NCBI GenBank assembly: GCA_964603585.1
Contig: CAZRVK010000005.1
Location: forward strand, 18,609 to 71,274
DNA: 52,666 nt
From: an uncultured Planctomycetales bacterium
GTDB taxonomy: Bacteria; Omnitrophota; Gorgyraeia; Gygaellales; Profunditerraquicolaceae
Direction of reading: 5' to 3'
Notes under the pieces: model-generated
Told to the model about the DNA's origin: nothing
Seen by the model: the letters and a program-made list of their open reading frames with translations, nothing else
Databases searched by the model: none
In this document: piece by piece, positions 4,325-50,952 of the stretch
Position numbering within the stretch: position 1 is the stretch's first letter
How the letters are laid out: every line of letters begins with the position of its first letter
Position numbers and translations under genes: made by a program

Positions 4325-4803
4325 AAAATCCAGTAAAGAAAAATGTTAAGAAAAGTACGCGCCCTACCTGGGATGAATATTTCTTAGAAGTAGCCAGCCT
4401 GGTTTCTAAGCGGTCTACCTGCCTTAGGAGGCATGTGGGGGCGGTATTGGTAAAAGACAAGAAGATCCTGGCTACAGGTTATAATGGGGCCCCTTCTGGC
4501 CTTAGGCATTGCCTGGACATTGGCTGTGTACGCCAAAAAATGAATATCCCTTCCGGAGAACGGCATGAACTTTGCCGCGGCCTGCATGCGGAACAGAATG
4601 TTATTTTACAAGCGGCGCTTTCCGGGGTAAGCACCAAGGATAGCGCGCTTTATATCACTAATCAACCTTGTGTGATCTGTGCAAAAATGTTGATTAACGC
4701 CGGCATATCCGAGGTCATTATTTCCGACGGTTATCCGGACATTATGGCACAGGATTTCTTAAAAGCGGCCAAAATAAAGATAAGAAGGATAAACAGGAAA
4801 TGA
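4321..4803 (+). CDS. dCMP deaminase (cytidine/deoxycytidylate deaminase family)
   Basis: [36 protein letters not shown] zinc motifs. Confidence 0.92.
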
Positions 4804-5273
4804 AGTGCCCTTATTGTGCGCATAAAGAAGATAAGGTGGTAGATTCGCGTTCGACGCAAGGGGAGTTTTCTATCCGCCGGAGGCGTGAATGTTTAAGGTG
4901 CAAAAAGCGTTTTACGACCTATGAATATATTGAGAATGTTTCCTTGATGGTGATCAAAAAAGACGGACGGCGCGAAATATTCGACCGAAAAAAGATCCTC
5001 TCCGGCATATTACGGGCATGTGAAAAGCGCCCGATCAGTATTGAAAGGATGGAAGAAGTTGTTTCTCATGTCGAGCATGCGCTGCAAAAGAAGTATGACC
5101 GGGAGGTCCCGGCGTCCAAGATCGGAGAATTAGTCGTAGAGCGGTTAAAGATCTTAGACGATGTCGCTTATGTTAGGTTTGCTTCCGTTTATAAACAGTT
5201 CAAGGATGTTTCCCAGTTCATGATGGAACTCAAAGATATGTTAGGCCAGCAGAAATACAAGATGCGTAAATAG
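4800..5273 (+). CDS. nrdR: Transcriptional repressor NrdR
   Basis: [25 protein letters not shown]-cone, [12 protein letters not shown]. Confidence 0.97.
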
Positions 5274-5289
5274 ATCTATAGGAGCTTTT

Positions 5290-5706
5290 ATGGTTGAAAT
5301 GGAGCTGAATAAAATAGTGATTGATGAAAAACGCCATGATCAGCTGATCGTATTAAAGGAGAAAAACGGCCAGCGGCTTTTACCGATCGTGATCGGGTTG
5401 CCGGAGGCATCAGCGATAAAACTTAAGATCAGCGGGTTCAAAGCTCCTCGGCCGTTGACCCATGACCTGTTACATGCGGCCATTGAGCATTTAGAGGCAA
5501 AGATCGATAAGATCATCATTGATAAATTAGAAGAAAATACTTTCCATGCCAAGATCGTCCTTATTACCGCATCGGGAAAAACCAAGGTTATCGATGCCCG
5601 CCCATCGGATAGTATCGCCTTGGCGGTTAGAGCGCATCTTGCGATACATGTTGAAGATTCGGTAATAAAACAGTCCGCGATGTTCAATCAGGGTAATCCC
5701 GAGTAA
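5290..5706 (+). CDS. Bifunctional nuclease domain protein (DUF151)
   Basis: LPIVIGLPEASAI, RPLTHDL, FHAKI, IDARPSDSIALA. Confidence 0.92.
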   Translation: MVEMELNKIVIDEKRHDQLIVLKEKNGQRLLPIVIGLPEASAIKLKISGFKAPRPLTHDLLHAAIEHLEAKIDKIIIDKLEENTFHAKIVLITASGKTKVIDARPSDSIALAVRAHLAIHVEDSVIKQSAMFNQGNPE

Positions 5707-9829: not shown

Positions 9830-10477
9830 ATGAATAATATAGCCAGGATAATCAAATTGATCGAAAAGCAGAGCCGGGGATTTATTGTTCCTTCGGTGAC
9901 GCAATTTTCCTTTAGAAATGATCCATATTTGGTGTTGATTTCTTGTATTTTAAGTCTAAGGACAAAAGATAAGACTACTATTGAGGCAAGTAACCGACTT
10001 TTTAAGGCCGCGTCTAATCCCAAAAAGATGCTTAAACTTTCTGCGGGGAAGATCGAGAAACTAATTTATCCGGTAGGTTTCTATAGGAACAAAACCAGGG
10101 TTATCCTGGGTATAAGCAGCAAGCTTATTAAAGAACATCGCGGCAAAGTTCCAGGCAATTTGGATGAGCTATTGGAATTCAAAGGAGTGGGAAGAAAAAC
10201 GGCTAATCTGGTTTTAGGGTTAGGTTTTGCTACGCCGGCAATTTGCGTAGATACTCATGTTCACCGGATATCTAACCGTTTAGGCTGGGTTAAGACTAAA
10301 ACCCCGGAAGAAACCGAGTTTGCTCTGCAAAGAATCGTACCGAAAAAATACTGGATTGAGTTAAATACCTGGTTAGTAGCTTTTGGCCAAAATCTTTGCC
10401 TGCCAGTTTCTCCTTATTGCAGCAGATGCAGGGTGAAAAGATTTTGCAAACAGATGCATGTAAAAGTATCGCGCTAA
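9830..10477 (+). CDS. nth: Endonuclease III
   Basis: LISCILSLRTKD, HhH GVGRKTANLV, CVDTHVHRISNR, C-x6-C-x2-C-x5-C Fe-S motif. Confidence 0.96.
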   Translation: MNNIARIIKLIEKQSRGFIVPSVTQFSFRNDPYLVLISCILSLRTKDKTTIEASNRLFKAASNPKKMLKLSAGKIEKLIYPVGFYRNKTRVILGISSKLIKEHRGKVPGNLDELLEFKGVGRKTANLVLGLGFATPAICVDTHVHRISNRLGWVKTKTPEETEFALQRIVPKKYWIELNTWLVAFGQNLCLPVSPYCSRCRVKRFCKQMHVKVSR

Positions 10478-10487
10478 AAAGCGCGCT

Positions 10488-10605
10488 AAAAAGGGGACGT
10501 TTCTATTTTTCCGCTTCCCCTTTTTTCCTTCTTGACCAGCTTAGGTTTCTGGCATAAAATAACTTTCGCCAGGGAAAAGCGGAAAAATAGAAACGTCCCC
10601 TTTTT
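10488..10605. repeat. GGGGACGTTTCTA inverted-repeat element, locus A (29-bp arms, 60-nt loop)
   Basis: 10488-10516 is the exact reverse complement of 10577-10605. Confidence 0.95.
10532..10560 (+). promoter_or_regulatory. Sigma70-like promoter inside loop of locus A
   Basis: TTGACC-17-TAAAAT. Confidence 0.65.
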
Positions 10606-10615
10606 TCCTATAATT

Positions 10616-10640
10616 GTAGGGGGTGGTCGTGACCGCCCCT
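10616..10640 (+). repeat. GTAG-type REP hairpin
   Basis: gtagggggtggtcgtgaccgcccct. Confidence 0.85.
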
Positions 10641-10665
10641 GTATTTCTTAGTGAAGGGATTAAAT

Positions 10666-20210: not shown

Positions 20211-20283
20211 AACCGGATTCCGCTGGATTTTCTTATCTATGTGGGTTTTGTGATAATTATAGCCTGCGAGGAATGCTTGTTCT

Positions 20284-20306
20284 GTAGGGGCGGTCGTAAC
20301 CGCCCC
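20284..20306 (+). repeat. GTAG-type REP hairpin
   Basis: gtaggggcggtcgtaaccgcccc. Confidence 0.85.
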
Positions 20307-20375
20307 ATTTTCATAGTAAGAAAACGGTTAATAATCCTGGTGGGGGGATAATATATAGTTTGTTCTACGTGAATC

Positions 20376-20403
20376 GTAGGGGATGGTCGCGACCATCCAC
20401 TAC
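20376..20403 (+). repeat. GTAG-type REP hairpin (compensatory variant)
   Basis: gtaggggatggtcgcgaccatccactac. Confidence 0.85.
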
Positions 20404-20407
20404 AAAT

Positions 20408-20467
20408 AAAGGGGACGTTGCAATAAAGGGGACGCCTGCCTGCCGGCAGGCAGGTTTCTATTTTTCC
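20408..20467 (+). repeat. GGGGACGTTTCTA element locus B: truncated copy plus interrupted solo arm
   Basis: aaaggggacgtt (20408-19), then aaaggggacg[20-bp insert]tttctatttttcc. Confidence 0.9.
20435..20454. mobile_element. 20-bp perfect palindrome CCTGCCTGCCGGCAGGCAGG inserted in locus B
   Basis: Self-complementary; removing it restores the consensus arm exactly. Confidence 0.8.
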
Positions 20468-20526
20468 TATAATTCGCCCGCCGTTGTGTTATAATAACTT
20501 TCCTGATTAAAAGGAGTTTGTATCTT

Positions 20527-28854: not shown

Positions 28855-28871
28855 GATAGGCGGGTTTTGTG

Positions 28872-28898
28872 GTAGTGGGGGCGGTCGTGAACGTCCCT
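28872..28898 (+). repeat. Degenerate GTAG-type REP
   Basis: gtagtgggggcggtcgtgaacgtccct. Confidence 0.6.
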
Positions 28899-30000: not shown

Positions 30001-30539
30001 TGAAAAAGAATTTATCAAAGTCCGGGGTTAAAGCCGGTAATATTTATCTGGTAGGTTTTATGGGCACAGGTAAGAGTGCCGTAGGAAGGCTTATAGCTAA
30101 AAAAAATAAATTCCAGTTTATTGATCTGGATGAGTTGATCGAGTTGCGCCAAAAGCGGCTTATCTCGGACATTTTTGCTAAAGACGGGGAAGCATATTTC
30201 CGTAAGGTTGAACGGCAGGCCTTGCGGGATGTTTCATGCGAAAGGCATTTTGTGGTTGCCTGCGGAGGAGGGATTGTCATCGATCCGGACAATATGAATA
30301 CCATGAAGAACACCGGCAGGGTTATTTGTTTAAGTGCTACTGCCGAGGCAATCTTAAAAAGGACATCCGGATGCAGCCACCGGCCATTATTGAATGTTAA
30401 AGACCCAAAGAAGCAGATAGAACTATTGCTTAAGTTGCGTGCTCCATATTATGCTGCAGCGGATAAGGTTATCGATACAACGCGTCTTTCTCTGAAACAA
30501 GTAGCAGACAAGATCACCCGATTGATAGGAGGAAAATGA
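29997..30539 (+). CDS. aroK: Shikimate kinase
   Basis: LVGFMGTGKS, DLDELIE, GEAYFR, CGGGIV, RPLL. Confidence 0.95.
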   Translation: MMKKNLSKSGVKAGNIYLVGFMGTGKSAVGRLIAKKNKFQFIDLDELIELRQKRLISDIFAKDGEAYFRKVERQALRDVSCERHFVVACGGGIVIDPDNMNTMKNTGRVICLSATAEAILKRTSGCSHRPLLNVKDPKKQIELLLKLRAPYYAAADKVIDTTRLSLKQVADKITRLIGGK

Positions 30540-31102
30540 TGACAGGTAATTTATCGGTTTTGGTTCTTTTTCCGATACTGGTTTTTAATACATTCTCTTG
30601 CGTTTTCGGCTTAGATTGCAAGGATGAATACGATTGCCTCAATCAGGCCAGCGATTACTATAAAAAAGGGGATTTAGCTACAGCGATCACCTATTATGAC
30701 CGGGCGATCGATATCGATCATAATTATGCCGAAGCTTTTTTAGCCCGGGGGAAAGCTTATTTTAAAGACAGTAATATTACCGAAGCGATGCGTAATTTCA
30801 ACCGGGCCATACAGATCAATCCCAGATATGTTGATGCTTATTTAGCCCGGGGAGTTGCTTTAGCGGCTACTGCTGATTTTGACGGTGCTCTTACCGAATA
30901 TAATAATGCTATCAGGTTCGATCCGGATAACGCCGCGGCATATTACCACAGGGCCGAAGCTTATTATGGCAAGTATATGTATGATAACAGCCGGCAAAGC
31001 TTGGATAAAGCCATACAGTTAGGTTATAAGCCTGACCCACAGTTCGTTAAGGACCTGGTTAAGATGCAGCGTTCGACCGGAGACGTCATAGGTCTCCAAT
31101 AA
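30536..31102 (+). CDS. Exported TPR-repeat protein
   Basis: Hydrophobic N-terminus; repeated A..YDRAI.I..NYAEAF..RG pattern. Confidence 0.88.
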   Translation: MMTGNLSVLVLFPILVFNTFSCVFGLDCKDEYDCLNQASDYYKKGDLATAITYYDRAIDIDHNYAEAFLARGKAYFKDSNITEAMRNFNRAIQINPRYVDAYLARGVALAATADFDGALTEYNNAIRFDPDNAAAYYHRAEAYYGKYMYDNSRQSLDKAIQLGYKPDPQFVKDLVKMQRSTGDVIGLQ

Positions 31103-31114
31103 CAAAAGTCGCAT

Positions 31115-31209
31115 GCAAAAAAGCAAAAAAGGGGACGTTTCTATTTTTTGAAAAAAATAGAAACGTCCCCTTTTTGCTTTTTGCCCTTTTTGCAAACGTC
31201 CCCTTTTTG
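31115..31209. repeat. GGGGACGTTTCTA element locus D (near-perfect palindrome plus extra partial arm)
   Basis: Arms 31125-31149 / 31151-31175, complementary outer GCAAAAAA/TTTTTGC tandems, third partial arm 31194-31209; lies between convergent genes. Confidence 0.95.
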
Positions 31210-31218
31210 TCCAGAAAC

Positions 31219-31530
31219 TTATTTCGTGCTTTCTATATCACATATCGCAACTTCAGCGAATACCGTATCTGGCTCAACAGGTAAACCGTTTAATGCGGGG
31301 ATGATAACCGTGTTTCCGCCCAATTTGGTAGCTTCCATAGTCAATTCAGTATCTATGAGCCATTGTCTTTTTCCCCGCGTATTTACTGTAATATTACTAA
31401 TGACTCTACATTTATATCCGTCAGGAAGAATGCCTTTAGGGGCGATTATTATTTCTACTTTCGGAGTAGTTTTATTTGCACATCCACTAATTAGCATTAC
31501 CATAAGGAATAGATAAATTAATTCTCTTAT
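31219..31530 (-). CDS. Small lipoprotein (possible YbjQ/DUF4156-like fold); start ATA 31530 or ATG 31503
   Basis: Lipobox ISGC; EATKLGGNTVII; AGGAGG RBS precedes in-frame ATA. Confidence 0.65.
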   Translation of the reverse strand: MRELIYLFLMVMLISGCANKTTPKVEIIIAPKGILPDGYKCRVISNITVNTRGKRQWLIDTELTMEATKLGGNTVIIPALNGLPVEPDTVFAEVAICDIESTK

Positions 31531-31685
31531 TTCTCCTCCTTCAGCGTTCTAACTAACCGGATGTTAAACTAATTACTTGAATTGCTCCTTTACTTTGGGG
31601 CGTGTAAGAAAAAAGGGTATCCCGAATCAGCCACTATTTTTATTCCTATTGATGATTTATCTTCCATCCCCCCGTGTATATTTAA

Positions 31686-31714
31686 ATAATACCGCTATGA
31701 CGCATAAAAGTCAA
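31686..31714 (-). promoter_or_regulatory. Sigma70-like promoter for lipoprotein gene
   Basis: TTGACT-17-TATTAT on minus strand, abutting locus E. Confidence 0.65.
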
Positions 31715-31718
31715 CTTT

Positions 31719-31792
31719 GCAAAAAAGGGGACGTTTCTATTTTTCGGGAAAAAATAGAAACGTCCCCTTTTTTGGAAACGTCCCCTTTTTTG
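31719..31792. repeat. GGGGACGTTTCTA element locus E
   Basis: Arms about 31720-31745 / 31748-31774, extra partial arm 31775-31792. Confidence 0.95.
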
Positions 31793-31946
31793 CTTTTACT
31801 GAAAAATAGGTGTTAGATTTAGCGGGGGTTTGCGTCTGTTATATTAGCGAGCAGGATTAGCTTTAGAGATTATTAGACGGCTTTGTGAAAATTTGCTTTG
31901 CTTTATAGATTAAAGATAGTAAAATAAAACAGTCAATTTAAATGCA

Positions 31947-33050
31947 ATGACGAAATTCGAGCTTTTGGTTGGTTTGAATATGGTTTCGGGGATTGGCAGC
32001 GTCCGGTTAAGGAAGCTGTTGGAATATTTCCCTGAACCCGCAGATGTTTTAAATGCTTCCCAAAAAGAGTTGATGTTTACCTGTGGGTTAAGCCAAAAAG
32101 CTGCCGCGCAGGTTTGTTCTTTAAAGAAAGTTGATTTGGCTGGTGAGTTTGCTTCTGTAAAAAAACACGGCCTGACGATTATTACCCAAGATGATGCGCG
32201 TTATCCTGATAATTTGCGGCAGATCCCAGCGCCGCCAATAGTTTTGTATGTCTTAGGCGAATTAAGGGGATCGGATAAACTTAGTATTGGAGTTGTCGGC
32301 AGCCGCAGAGCATCATATTATGGATTGTCCCTGGCTGAACAGTTTTCTTTGGAGTTGGCCTTATCCGGGCTTACAATCGTTTCCGGCTTGGCTCGGGGAG
32401 TAGATACCGCATCCCATAACGGTGCTTTAAAATCAGGCGGCCGTACTATTGCAGTTATGGGCAGCGGATTTGGGCATATTTACCCGCCGGAAAATAAGAA
32501 GTTAGCGAAAAGGATATCTGAACATGGCGCGGTAATTTCGGAATTTGCCATGGATACTCGGCCGTTTCGGGAGAATTTTCCCAGGCGTAACCGTATCGTT
32601 AGCGGCCTAAGCCTAGGAGTATTAGTTGTAGAAGCGGCCCGCAACAGTGGGGCATTGATTACTGCAGACTTTGCCTTAGAGCAGGGCAGGGAAGTTTTTG
32701 CCTTGCCCGGGGCGGTGAATTCACCGAATGCCTTTGGTACGAATGAGTTGATTAAGCAGGGGGCGAAACTGGTTTCTTCCAAAGAGGATGTTTTGGAAGG
32801 TTTGAATTTATTTCTGGCGACAGGTGTACCGCAAGAAAACAGGGGCCTGGATCCGGCAGATGATTTTTCTGATGAAGAGCGTATTTTATATGATTTGATC
32901 TCTGCTCAACCATTATTTTTAGATGAAATCCTTGGAAAGGTTTCATTGGCCATGCCCTTGGCATACGAATTATTATTAAAGTTGCAAATGAAAAAGCTGA
33001 TCAAACAGCTTCCGGGGAAACGATTTGTCAGGGCAAATCAGGCGCTATAA
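31947..33050 (+). CDS. dprA: DNA-processing protein DprA
   Basis: PPIVLYVLG, VVGSRRAS, VSGLARGVD, FPRRNRIVSG, VEAARNSGALITA, GREVFALPG. Confidence 0.96.
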   Translation: MTKFELLVGLNMVSGIGSVRLRKLLEYFPEPADVLNASQKELMFTCGLSQKAAAQVCSLKKVDLAGEFASVKKHGLTIITQDDARYPDNLRQIPAPPIVLYVLGELRGSDKLSIGVVGSRRASYYGLSLAEQFSLELALSGLTIVSGLARGVDTASHNGALKSGGRTIAVMGSGFGHIYPPENKKLAKRISEHGAVISEFAMDTRPFRENFPRRNRIVSGLSLGVLVVEAARNSGALITADFALEQGREVFALPGAVNSPNAFGTNELIKQGAKLVSSKEDVLEGLNLFLATGVPQENRGLDPADDFSDEERILYDLISAQPLFLDEILGKVSLAMPLAYELLLKLQMKKLIKQLPGKRFVRANQAL

Positions 33051-46780: not shown

Positions 46781-46836
46781 GCAATAAAGGGCAATAAAGG
46801 CAATAAAGGGCAATAAAGGGGACGTTTCTATTTTTT
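46781..46836 (+). repeat. (GCAATAAAGG)x4 tandem leading into solo GGGGACGTTTCTA arm, locus F
   Basis: gcaataaagg gcaataaag gcaataaagg gcaataaagg ggacgtttctatttttt. Confidence 0.92.
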
Positions 46837-46854
46837 CGAACTAAACTCATTTTC

Positions 46855-46876
46855 GGGGCGGTCGCAACCGCACCCC
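46855..46876 (+). repeat. REP hairpin lacking GTAG foot
   Basis: ggggcggtcgcaaccgcacccc. Confidence 0.7.
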
Positions 46877-46913
46877 ACAGGGTATATCCCTTTATAAGGG
46901 GATAAGGATAAAT

Positions 46914-48956: not shown

Positions 48957-49019
48957 GATTATTGATTAAATGCCGATTTAAAGTATGCTAATACTATTAT
49001 CTTTAGATTAAGTTTCATT

Positions 49020-49047
49020 GCAGGGGTCAGTCGTGACCGCCCATTAC
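49020..49047 (+). repeat. Degenerate GTAG-type REP (GCAG)
   Basis: gcaggggtcagtcgtgaccgcccattac. Confidence 0.7.
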
Positions 49048-49061
49048 AGAAAAAAAAAAGA

Positions 49062-49147
49062 AAAAAAGGGGACGTTTCTATTTTTTATCTATCTTAATTG
49101 CTAAAAAAATAGAAACGTCCCCTTTTTTGGAAACGTCCCCTTTTTTG
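49062..49147. repeat. GGGGACGTTTCTA element locus G
   Basis: Arms 49062-49086 / 49104-49128, 17-nt loop, extra partial arm 49130-49147. Confidence 0.95.
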
Positions 49148-49167
49148 CCCTTTTTTGATAAAAAGTC

Positions 49168-49196
49168 TTGATATTGCTAATTTATTCTAATATACT
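49168..49196 (+). promoter_or_regulatory. Sigma70-like promoter
   Basis: TTGATA-17-TATACT; implies true start at ATG 49234 rather than TTG 49168. Confidence 0.65.
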
Positions 49197-49233
49197 AATA
49201 TTATTATTTTTCAGTCAAAAATCCCGCAGGCTT

Positions 49234-50829
49234 ATGAATAAACTGCTCATTTTGTTTTTAAAGTTTATTTCCATTCCAGTTTTTTTATTTTGTTTTTCCT
49301 CCTTCCAGTATGCTTTCGCTAACAATATGGCGGTAAGTAGTGTGATTTTGACCTCACAAGATACAGGTGCTGATACCGTCAAGGTCCAATTCAATATCTC
49401 TTGGGCTAATTCCTGGCGGGACGCTGCAAATTACGATGCCGCCTGGGTGTTTGCTAAATATTCTACCGATGGAGCGACTTGGAAACACCTGACTTTAAAG
49501 AGTTCAGGGACTAATCCTTCGGGATTTGTTACCGGAAGCGGCACATCGATACAGATCGTGGTGCCAACTGATAAAAAGGGGTGTTTTATCCAGCGTTCCG
49601 GCAATGGCACAGGCACTTTGACCACCACCGGTATAAACCTGGTTTGGGACTATGGCACTGACGGATTAGGAGACAGCGATATCTTTACTGCGAATATGCG
49701 CCTGAAAGTATTTGCGATCGAGATGATATATATCCCAGCCGCAAGTTTTTATATTGGCGATGGCAATGGGACAACCGAGTCGGTTTATGCATTTCATAGC
49801 GGTACCAGTAATTCTGCGGCATTGATCGGTACGTCTTTGACTAGAAATATCCGGACTGATTTTGCTCTAAATAATGATGATACTCAGCTTACTGGTACGG
49901 GAGCAGGTTCAGGCCTGGGTATTGGCGGTTCGGGTGTATGGTCGGGCTTAGATACTAATAATGACGGCACTATTGATAATGCCAGTTTCCCTACTGGATA
50001 TAATCCATTTTACCTGATGAAGTATGAAGTCACCGAAGGCCAATGGGTGGAATTCTTTAATACTTTAACCAGTGCCCAAAAAACCGCAAGAGACCTTACG
50101 GGTGCAGCCGGTAAAAACAGTCAGGCAGTAGAGTCTCGCAACACTATTGCCTGGTCTGGTGGGACAAGTGATGCGACTACTATCCGGGAAAATCGGGCAT
50201 GTAATTATCTTTCCTGGTCAGATTTGATGGCTTATGCGGATTGGGCGGGTTTGCGACCTATGACAGAACTGGAATTCGAAAAAGCCTGCCGTGGCTCTAC
50301 TGCTTCTGTGTATGCAGAATATGCCTGGGGTAATAGCAGTGTAACACAGGCAGCGACTATTTCTGGTAGTGAAGATGGGACAGAAACGGTTACTAATTCC
50401 GGAGCAAATTGTAATTTTAATGCGATAACTTTTACTGGAGGAGATGGAGGGCAAGGCCCATTACGCGCAGGCATTTTTGCTACCAGTGCTTCTACTCGAG
50501 CGGTTGCTGGAGCAGGTTATTATGGGAATATGGAGTTATCTGGCAATAATTGGGAAAGAGCTGTAACTGTAGGTAATAGTACTGGAAGGTCATTTCAAGG
50601 TACGCATGGAGATGGCAGTTTAACCACTGCAGGTTTCGGCACTAATACTGATTGGCCGGGATATATTACCGGTAGTGGTATATCAGATGTTCAAGGTTCT
50701 GGTCTTCGCGGTAGCAGCTGGGCCGATGATTCAGACAAAGCACGTTCATCCAATCGTAGTTATGCTTCTTTCGCGTATGATGGCCGTGAAAATTTTACCG
50801 GAGGCAGGTTGGCCAGAACTTTAAATTAA
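49234..50829 (+). CDS. Secreted FGE-sulfatase/SUMF1-fold (CLec-like) protein
   Basis: Signal peptide ending AFA; FYLMKYEVT, SWSDLMAYADWAGLRPMTELEFEKACRG, MELSGNNWE, RGSSW, GGRLAR. Confidence 0.88.
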   Translation: MNKLLILFLKFISIPVFLFCFSSFQYAFANNMAVSSVILTSQDTGADTVKVQFNISWANSWRDAANYDAAWVFAKYSTDGATWKHLTLKSSGTNPSGFVTGSGTSIQIVVPTDKKGCFIQRSGNGTGTLTTTGINLVWDYGTDGLGDSDIFTANMRLKVFAIEMIYIPAASFYIGDGNGTTESVYAFHSGTSNSAALIGTSLTRNIRTDFALNNDDTQLTGTGAGSGLGIGGSGVWSGLDTNNDGTIDNASFPTGYNPFYLMKYEVTEGQWVEFFNTLTSAQKTARDLTGAAGKNSQAVESRNTIAWSGGTSDATTIRENRACNYLSWSDLMAYADWAGLRPMTELEFEKACRGSTASVYAEYAWGNSSVTQAATISGSEDGTETVTNSGANCNFNAITFTGGDGGQGPLRAGIFATSASTRAVAGAGYYGNMELSGNNWERAVTVGNSTGRSFQGTHGDGSLTTAGFGTNTDWPGYITGSGISDVQGSGLRGSSWADDSDKARSSNRSYASFAYDGRENFTGGRLARTLN

Positions 50830-50837
50830 ATTTCATT

Positions 50838-50865
50838 GTAGGGGGCGGTTATGACCGCCCCCTAC
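50838..50865 (+). repeat. GTAG-type REP hairpin
   Basis: gtagggggcggttatgaccgccccctac. Confidence 0.88.
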
Positions 50866-50883
50866 CTGTTAGAAAAAAAAGGT

Positions 50884-50952
50884 AAAAAAGGGGACGTTTC
50901 TATTTTTTCGCGAATTAAGGAAGGATGAAAAATAGAAACGTCCCCTTTTTTT
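50884..50952. repeat. GGGGACGTTTCTA element locus H
   Basis: Arms about 50884-50909 / 50927-50951, ~17-nt loop. Confidence 0.95.

Follow-up and report, generated by a model that had tools for sequence, protein, structure and literature searches.

Why does a single small gene on the minus strand lie between two copies of the same palindrome in the middle of a run of core genes, and has it come or gone by way of those copies? The question is raised by a stretch of 52,666 nucleotides (52.7 kb; here called the window) from an uncultured bacterium of the Omnitrophota, in which a gene for a small putative lipoprotein is flanked by two near-identical palindromic elements, D (31119 to 31209, including its repeated outer end) and E (31716 to 31792). 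A first-pass annotation of the sequence had described the gene as enclosed by these elements and, together with its promoter, as an accessory and self-contained unit that could be removed. The enclosure is indeed as described, and the accessory nature of the unit is supported by the composition of the gene, by the rarity of its product, by its absence from four family-level relatives, and by an allele in a closer relative that has one element and lacks the gene. Of the mechanisms considered, recombination at the repeat copies is the likeliest.

A gene present in one strain and missing from another

Run X4, a landfill metagenome, contains a relative that is 93 to 98% identical to the window in the flanks of the bracketed segment, at patchy coverage; three further runs (X3, X6, and X7) are shallow. 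One 321-nt contig from X4 corresponds to positions 31076 to 31107 of the window, continues with 12 unrelated nucleotides (ACAACAATAAAA), and then resumes with positions 31720 to 31986. Depth in X4 is zero over 31212 to 31670. Both the TPR gene, with 6 mismatches over 287 nt, and the region upstream of dprA are kept. Because the contig skips 612 nt and the gene has no depth at all, the X4 relative has one element and no lipoprotein gene. The 612-bp stretch (Table 1) is a strain-level presence/absence polymorphism, and its ends coincide with the repeat.

The bracketed segment is flanked by aroC, aroK, and a TPR gene on one side and by dprA, topA, and xerC on the other. The closest DprA loci among species-representative genomes are from Omnitrophota metagenome-assembled genomes, at 56 to 60% identity. 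In the four family-level relatives (L001 to L004), the gene order is helicase, SNase, aroC, aroK, dprA, topA, xerC, and waaA. There, dprA follows directly after aroK (8 nt apart in L001), the TPR and lipoprotein genes are absent, and the loci are without the repeats. The initial view of the flanks as core genes holds for aroC/aroK and dprA/topA/xerC, which are kept in all four, but not for the TPR gene; by this comparison of gene orders, lineage specificity extends beyond the bracketed lipoprotein gene to the TPR gene outside the bracket. Neither of the two proteins has a homolog among all of the loci collected. The first-pass annotation had suggested examining the TPR-dprA interval in relatives, and the answer is a single element without the gene in X4 and an aroK gene abutting dprA, with no repeats, in L001 to L004. 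Synteny of the gene in relatives lacking the repeats, which would have pointed to repeats that simply landed in available intergenic space, was not seen there. The TPR gene itself (30536 to 31102) is of ordinary composition and, through an ATGA overlap, translationally coupled to aroK.

In X1, the likely source run, contigs break at D and E. The contig carrying the lipoprotein gene has a depth of 7.2, the D-specific and E-specific contigs have depths of 7.6 and 9.1, and the flanks have depths of 11.3 and 11.1, a hint of heterogeneity in the source sample.

Table 1. Features of the bracketed segment and repeat elements of the window
Feature	Position (nt)	Strand	Remarks
Segment missing in X4 relative	31108-31719 (612 nt)		One element copy, lipoprotein gene, promoter-like site
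Small lipoprotein gene (cargo), from probable start	31219-31530	minus	Mechanical open reading frame 31219-31503, ATG start
TTAGTTAGA	31548-31556	minus	5 nt upstream of ribosome-binding-site-like stretch; sole window copy of the 9-mer
Promoter-like TTGACT-17-TATTAT	31714-31686	minus	Consensus scan, 10/12 positions
Element D	31119-31182		Inverted repeat I6, 90% complementary; arm AAAAGCAAAAAAGGGGACGTTTCTATTTTTT 31119-31149, 2-nt center, arm 31152-31182
Outer-end stutter of D	31183-31209		Nested partial outer-arm copies, all ending TTTTTG: CTTTTTG, CCCTTTTTG, CAAACGTCCCCTTTTTG; 11-nt core with 1 mismatch at 31193-31203
Element E	31716-31792		I7, 97% complementary; arms 31716-31744 and 31750-31778, center CGGGA (5 nt); 18-nt outer unit GAAACGTCCCCTTTTTTG in tandem, 31757-31774 and 31775-31792
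Same repeat family	10488-10605		I5, 100% complementary; perfect 29-nt arms, 60-nt center; fold -62.8 kcal/mol
Degenerate family member	20405-20474		Left arm stuttered, split by GC palindrome CCTGCCTGCCGGCAGGCAGG
Lone left arm (singlet)	46792-46836		Preceded by stuttered CAATAAAGG(G) units
Same repeat family	49056-49157		I18, 100% complementary; 25-nt arms, 17-nt center, outer-unit stutter
Second bracketed gene, FGE-sulfatase domain protein	49168-50829	plus	Pfam PF03781, 3e-16
Same repeat family	50884-50951		25-nt arms, 18-nt center
Second repeat family	10613-10638, 20280-20305, 20373-20398, 28871-28896, 46852-46878, 49017-49042, 50835-50860		GTAG head

The bracketed gene

The interval between D and E holds one open reading frame (ORF), on the minus strand. 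Its product has only one close homolog (P0002), which is 82% identical, 103 amino acids long, and begins MKKLIYLF..ISGC. Given that beginning, the gene in the window probably starts with the ATA codon at 31530 and encodes a lipoprotein of about 103 amino acids, in agreement with its initial assignment as a minus-strand lipoprotein gene. Indeed, a full signal peptide with the lipobox LISGC requires the ATA at 31530 to 31528, which lies downstream of a stretch resembling a ribosome-binding site (RBS), GAAGGAGGAG (31542 to 31531). Where the window has this ATA, the homolog has ATG-AAA-AAA, and with the next ATG (31503) as the start, most of the signal peptide would be lost. The gene would have either a rare start codon or an early state of decay.

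The gene has a GC content of 0.369 (z = -3.2) and a GC content at third codon positions (GC3) of 0.288 (z = -4.1), the lowest among the 53 genes of the window; it had been called AT rich, and it is compositionally foreign. Its relatives number two proteins in an index of 5.8 billion proteins and three hits among 1.84 billion representatives, and it matched no Pfam family. A structure model (pLDDT of 73) has a beta-beta-alpha-beta-beta fold with weak matches to the envelope proteins YdgH/DUF1471, RcsF, and SrfN, every E value being 0.065 or higher. No second copy of this cargo was found anywhere in the protein indexes or the collected loci. On the contig of P0002, for which the gene layout is known, another gene on the same strand ends 10 nt upstream, so its context is unlike that in the window. 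A more distant homolog, 43% identical, occurs at 3 to 561 of L128 within a tandem array of small paralogs that have a common motif, LGGNTIIIP; these stand in a tight same-strand row of genes, without the repeats.

The TTGACT-17-TATTAT site that had been placed inside the bracket as a promoter is there. It is the top promoter-like match in the 28- to 34-kb region and lies about 155 nt upstream of the lipoprotein start; across the scanned region, promoter-like sites show no excess (13, versus 12 expected).

The same layout had been reported to recur at 49020 to 50952, and two further elements of the family do enclose an ORF there (Table 1). This second bracketed gene has a GC3 of 0.363, the second lowest of the 53. 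The two genes bracketed by complete elements are the two with the lowest GC3 in the window, which would happen once in 1,378 times at random.

The repeats and a Y1 transposase

Both palindromes are built from a 25-nt arm, AAAAAAGGGGACGTTTCTATTTTT. An 11-nt core, GGGGACGTTTC, is present 16 times in the window with at most one mismatch, versus 0.85 expected, and 0 of 100 shuffled sequences reached 16. D and E are terminator-like on both strands, and the dimers fold into hairpins of about 20 to 25 bp between A- and T-runs. In D, the hairpin, preceded by an A-run and followed by a T-run, has at least about 20 bp and folds as RNA at -45 and -50 kcal/mol (z of about -8); E folds at -46 and -48 kcal/mol (z of about -9). 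From this shape, which is that of an intrinsic terminator, the dimers would probably stop transcription from either direction. D, placed downstream of two convergent genes, would terminate both the aroC-aroK-TPR operon and the lipoprotein gene. E sits where the lipoprotein gene and dprA diverge, a position that calls for no terminator.

When metagenome contigs were scanned with an 18-mer from the arm, at least 120 loci matched, on host contigs ranging from 30% to 70% GC. Among the matches listed, 89 inverted arm pairs were identified and 84 were scored; the 17-nt arms were perfectly complementary in 46 of the 84, and the centers ranged from none to about 80 nt. The same scan of viral contigs gave 0 hits, a search of the literature for the arm sequence returned chance primer matches only, and Rfam, run over the whole window at gathering thresholds, reported no family.

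Clustering of the ORFs near the repeats singled out one protein, present in at least eight loci. It is 224 to 231 amino acids long and matches Pfam Y1_Tnp at 6e-14. Its best NCBIfam model is NF047646, for the repetitive extragenic palindrome (REP)-associated tyrosine transposase (RAYT), with 57 to 71 bits, below the 80-bit equivalog cutoff, and its only PDB hit is 4ER8, the Escherichia coli TnpA-REP. The protein has an invariant HUH motif (NHxHL), an invariant tyrosine (YIELNP), and a C-terminal KRGRPKK. Among the matches listed, it is found between arms in L027/L126, L038, L061, L105, and L111. In these units, a left arm lies about 60 to 85 nt upstream of the start codon and is followed by a conserved leader, TTAGTTAGATTTyCCCTCTTT...AGAAGGAGGGATTTTTTATG, then by the ORF, and finally by a right arm that overlaps the stop codon, which is provided by GAAAAATAG of that arm. 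Decayed transposase units are present in L089, a contig with moderate similarity to the window. On these sequence grounds, the arms of D and E are the terminal inverted repeats (TIRs) of a Y1/HUH transposase unit of the RAYT/TIRYT class, and D and E are transposase-less, REPIN-like inverted dimers of the arm.

The transposases found between arms are 36 to 66% identical to each other, and contigs from many habitats, with GC contents of 30 to 70%, have the same arms of 17 to 25 nt in common (L008 to L127). The arms are therefore far more conserved than either the enzyme or its hosts. L062 carries a transposase paralog with different arms, GGGGTCAGAATTA. That unit, at 4690 to 5480, has the same leader and the arms GGGGTCAGAATTATTTTT, and since the contig also carries two dimers of the first family, to which D and E belong, two cognate repeat-enzyme pairs may coexist in it.

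The 9-mer TTAGTTAGA, which lies just upstream of the lipoprotein gene, has one match in the window against 0.36 expected anywhere. The same motif opens the conserved leader after the left arm in the transposase units (consensus of L027, L034, L038, L061, L062, L089, and L111), and the copy next to the lipoprotein gene may be a remnant of such a leader.

Other cargo between arms

At several loci, something other than the transposase stands behind the arm or the leader. In L089 (5120 to 6065), the left arm and conserved leader lead into an ATG and a HEPN/nucleotidyltransferase pair, in place of the transposase, before the right arm. L034 (717 to 2804) carries an ORF6N gene, with the leader in front of it, plus genes of nucleotidyltransferase type; the entire insert has a dimer on either side and is next to pgk and tpiA. 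In L045 (about 800 to 1714), the leader precedes an uncharacterized ORF of 278 amino acids in the place of the transposase. In L096 (175 to 1970), two dimers enclose a GDSL-like gene with a GC content of 31%. L089 and L034 retain arms plus the conserved leader.

The first-pass annotation had proposed that the repeats mark sites of gene acquisition. The swapped accessory cargo at these loci favors that proposal, but the composition test across loci is weak. At arm-bearing loci, GC3 of the bracketed gene was lower than that of its neighbors for 12 of 18 genes (P = 0.045) and, when counted per locus, for 6 of 9 (P = 0.3, not significant).

Probable recombination between repeat copies and the alternatives

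Each element is palindromic, so D and E are direct as well as inverted repeats of each other. Exactly one element copy plus the cargo separates the X4 allele from that of the window, as homologous recombination between copies would be expected to produce. By one route, a circle with one element and the gene would integrate into a resident single element; by the reverse route, recombination of D with E would delete the segment and leave one element. On composition, a gain in the lineage of the window is the likelier direction of the event. We give a probability of roughly 60% to the reading in which D and E are REPIN-like copies of the terminal repeat of a Y1/HUH (RAYT/TIRYT) element and the gene polymorphism arose by recombination at such copies.

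Several observations weigh against this reading. The X4 evidence is one Logan contig of low depth (about 4x), and its left junction differs from that of the window (ACAACAATAAAA in X4 and GTCGCATGCAAAAAAG in the window), which means that X4 did not arise simply and recently from a window-like sequence by D x E deletion. With seven element loci in 52 intergenic gaps, chance would be expected to leave one gene with an element on either side (P = 0.60), and the three adjacent occupied pairs seen in the window are only mildly unusual (P = 0.026). A transposase search against the 52.7-kb window found no transposase gene. Likewise, when the L038 transposase locus was compared with runs X1, X2, X4, and X5 and that of L061 with runs X1, X2, X3, and X6, the source runs X1 and X2 yielded no transposase at 80% identity or higher, just arms and one remnant; the remnant is on an X1 contig of matching depth, in which an arm pair surrounds 32 nt of a transposase 3' end. 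No junction of a circular form was seen in the runs, in data that consist of contigs, which drop rare variants. Enzyme-mediated excision, which had been suggested at the outset, finds no support in what was seen: neither a circle, nor a second cargo copy, nor an enzyme-mediated event.

A possible but unlikely alternative is that the unit moved as a mobile insertion cassette. The outer left arm, leader, lipoprotein gene, and outer right arm would then be the shell of a Y1 element in which the ORF was replaced by cargo, moved as single-stranded DNA by a TIRYT acting in trans. The units in L089, L034, and L045, in which the arm or leader precedes genes other than the transposase, speak in its favor, as does the sole TTAGTTAGA of the window, which is in the lipoprotein leader, next to the RBS-like stretch. 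However, the X4 allele retains a complete element, and an arm-bounded insertion into an empty target would leave none there; the cargo in the window lies between two complete hairpins, not within one arm pair. The lack of a second cargo copy also speaks against this explanation, as do a leader match of only 9 nt and the finding of no TIRYT in the window or the source runs. We regard as distinctly improbable, on the other hand, that the repeats landed independently around a resident small gene and that X4 lacks the gene through an unrelated deletion. In favor of this reading are the chance expectation of one doubly flanked gene calculated above, the preference of REP-type repeats for intergenic space (PMC3733652), and the bracketed-gene GC3 test, which is not significant per locus. 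Coincidence does not readily account for a missing segment in X4 that starts and stops at the repeat with exactly one copy left, or for the bracketed pair being the two genes of lowest GC3. In addition, E occupies a divergent gap, and among the pairs in other loci 0 of 44 that could be classified did so, in a count that depends on crude gene calling (longest ORF), which was unreliable in high-GC contigs and placed 35 of the 89 pairs falsely inside ORFs.

Hardly credible is a site-specific cassette system in which the palindromes serve as attC-like sites for a tyrosine recombinase, the nearby XerC being the candidate enzyme. The sites are palindromic with conserved arms and variable centers, single genes lie between them with strain-variable presence as in integron cassettes, and xerC is 3.3 kb away. 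Yet the topA-xerC-waaA synteny is kept in relatives whose sampled loci lack the repeats, and this syntenic xerC, a conserved housekeeping gene, is the only tyrosine recombinase seen near the finding; no integron integrase (IntI) was found among the genes there, and there is no attI and no co-oriented array of promoterless genes. The cargo has its own promoter-like site and lies outside any co-oriented array. The conserved arms are 25 nt long, compared with 7-nt attC core sites, and by inspection they do not fit RYYYAAC/GTTRRRY. The enzyme to which they are tied is a Y1 transposase. As an identity for the repeats, attC/XerC recombination sites were dropped. DNA uptake sequences were dropped because the repeat is tied to a transposase and is common to unrelated genomes, and CGTC-tagged REPs were dropped because CGTC is inside the stem and is not an unpaired tag.

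The same 25-nt arms in genomes of 30 to 70% GC might offer portable sites of homology or recombination at which single-gene units are captured, swapped, and lost across distant lineages, a form of cassette exchange built on the repeat of a Y1 transposase and not on an integron. We consider so general a role a long shot. The cargo units seen so far are the lipoprotein gene, toxin-antitoxin pairs, ORF6N-type genes, and a GDSL-like enzyme. Should recombination or transposition at the repeats prove general, small accessory genes would have an inexpensive means of moving, and the ready-made terminators that accompany them would be explained. The locus is a concrete, datable case, in the poorly studied Omnitrophota, of a gene gain or loss between strains whose ends fall exactly on a transposase-derived hairpin repeat. 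For annotation, such repeats should be treated as TIRYT/REPIN-type elements, with caution when they appear as terminator predictions.

Relation to known repeat systems

The closest described class is that of the TIRtrons, or TIRYTs, which are RAYT-like genes flanked by long inverted repeats sharing GGGGWSAS, and whose repeats are scattered over the genome in dimers and clusters (Di Nocera, De Gregorio & Rocco 2013, PMC3733652); the class is equivalent to TnpA-Y1 subclass 2.1, which is RAYT group 1 (PMC6006769, PMC5581495). The metagenome loci with the arms of the window have a Y1 transposase with HUH motif and tyrosine that is RAYT-like, not IS200-like, and is longer than E. coli TnpA-REP. It is flanked by long TIRs identical to the dispersed repeat (L027/L126, L038, L061, L105, and L111) and not by GTAG hairpins. 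The repeats start with GGGG, and copies are dispersed as dimers and clusters. Of the eight positions of GGGG[AT][CG]A[CG], the arm start in the window, GGGGACGT, fits six, and that of the L062 paralog, GGGGTCAG, fits all eight. The differences are the Omnitrophota host, the occurrence of the same arms in contigs of 30 to 70% GC, the swapped cargo of some units, and, in the window itself, the presence of repeat copies alone. The first-pass annotation had seen in the repeats an integron-free cassette system, a view that we do not retain: as they are the arms of this described class of Y1 transposase elements, a cassette system of a new kind is not supported.

REPIN-RAYT systems (Bertels & Rainey 2011, PMC3116915, PMC3337134) resemble the present elements in that a pair of short inverted repeats, separated by a spacer, makes up a hairpin that is nonautonomous and mostly intergenic, with many copies, with singlets as decay products, and with a cognate Y1 transposase flanked by the same repeats. 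These features, namely an inverted unit pair with a spacer, a hairpin, intergenic dispersal, and a flanking RAYT, are all found here. The arms, however, are without a hairpin of their own and without the 5' GTAG tag of canonical REPs, the center between them is much more variable in length, and the best NCBIfam score is under the RAYT equivalog cutoff (57 to 71 versus 80 bits). Because the single unit is not itself a REP, the match is a likeness in working and not strict membership. A single arm has neither self-complementarity nor a GTAG head and is not a canonical GTAG REP, a feature that the second repeat family of the window (ATTGTAGGGGGCGGTCGTGACCGCCCC) does have.

Mobile insertion cassettes (MICs) consist of inverted repeats of insertion sequence (IS) type around passenger genes, with no transposase (PMC3129680, PMC4337579). 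Repeat-bounded units with one or a few nontransposase genes are seen here in the window, in L089, and in L034, and no second copy of any cargo unit was found. Known MICs derive from IS families with DDE transposases and have target site duplications, whereas the parent here is of the Y1/HUH type.

In Neisseria, pairs of uptake sequences and Correia elements are inverted short-repeat pairs that double as intrinsic terminators downstream of genes. The present elements are likewise inverted pairs of short repeats with a terminator-like shape, but they are tied to a transposase and occur in very different genomes, and there is no evidence of DNA uptake.

Other repeats in the window

The center of the element at 10488 to 10605 contains TTGACC-17-TAAAAT (10532 to 10560), which faces a downstream gene at 10651, so this element could supply a promoter plus a terminator. 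In the degenerate member at 20405 to 20474, the 20-nt GC palindrome CCTGCCTGCCGGCAGGCAGG interrupts the left arm between GGGGACG and TTTCTATTTTT and looks like a nested insertion of another small palindrome.

Outer-end stutters were observed in the window at 31183 to 31209, 31757 to 31792, 49123 to 49157, 46792 to 46815, and 10470 to 10492 and in loci L078, L096, L113, L117, L118, and L127. They have a fixed outer boundary 6 to 7 nt beyond CCCC, as in the doubled GAAACGTCCCCTTTTTTG of E, and a variable inner start. No published description of such stutters was found. They may be footprints of the transposase cut site or of hairpin-induced slippage.

The second repeat family, ATTGTAGGGG(G)CGGTCGTGACCGCCCC, has a GTAG head and a short GC hairpin and is of the canonical REP type. 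A copy lies within about 25 nt of five of the seven first-family loci, the exceptions being D and E.

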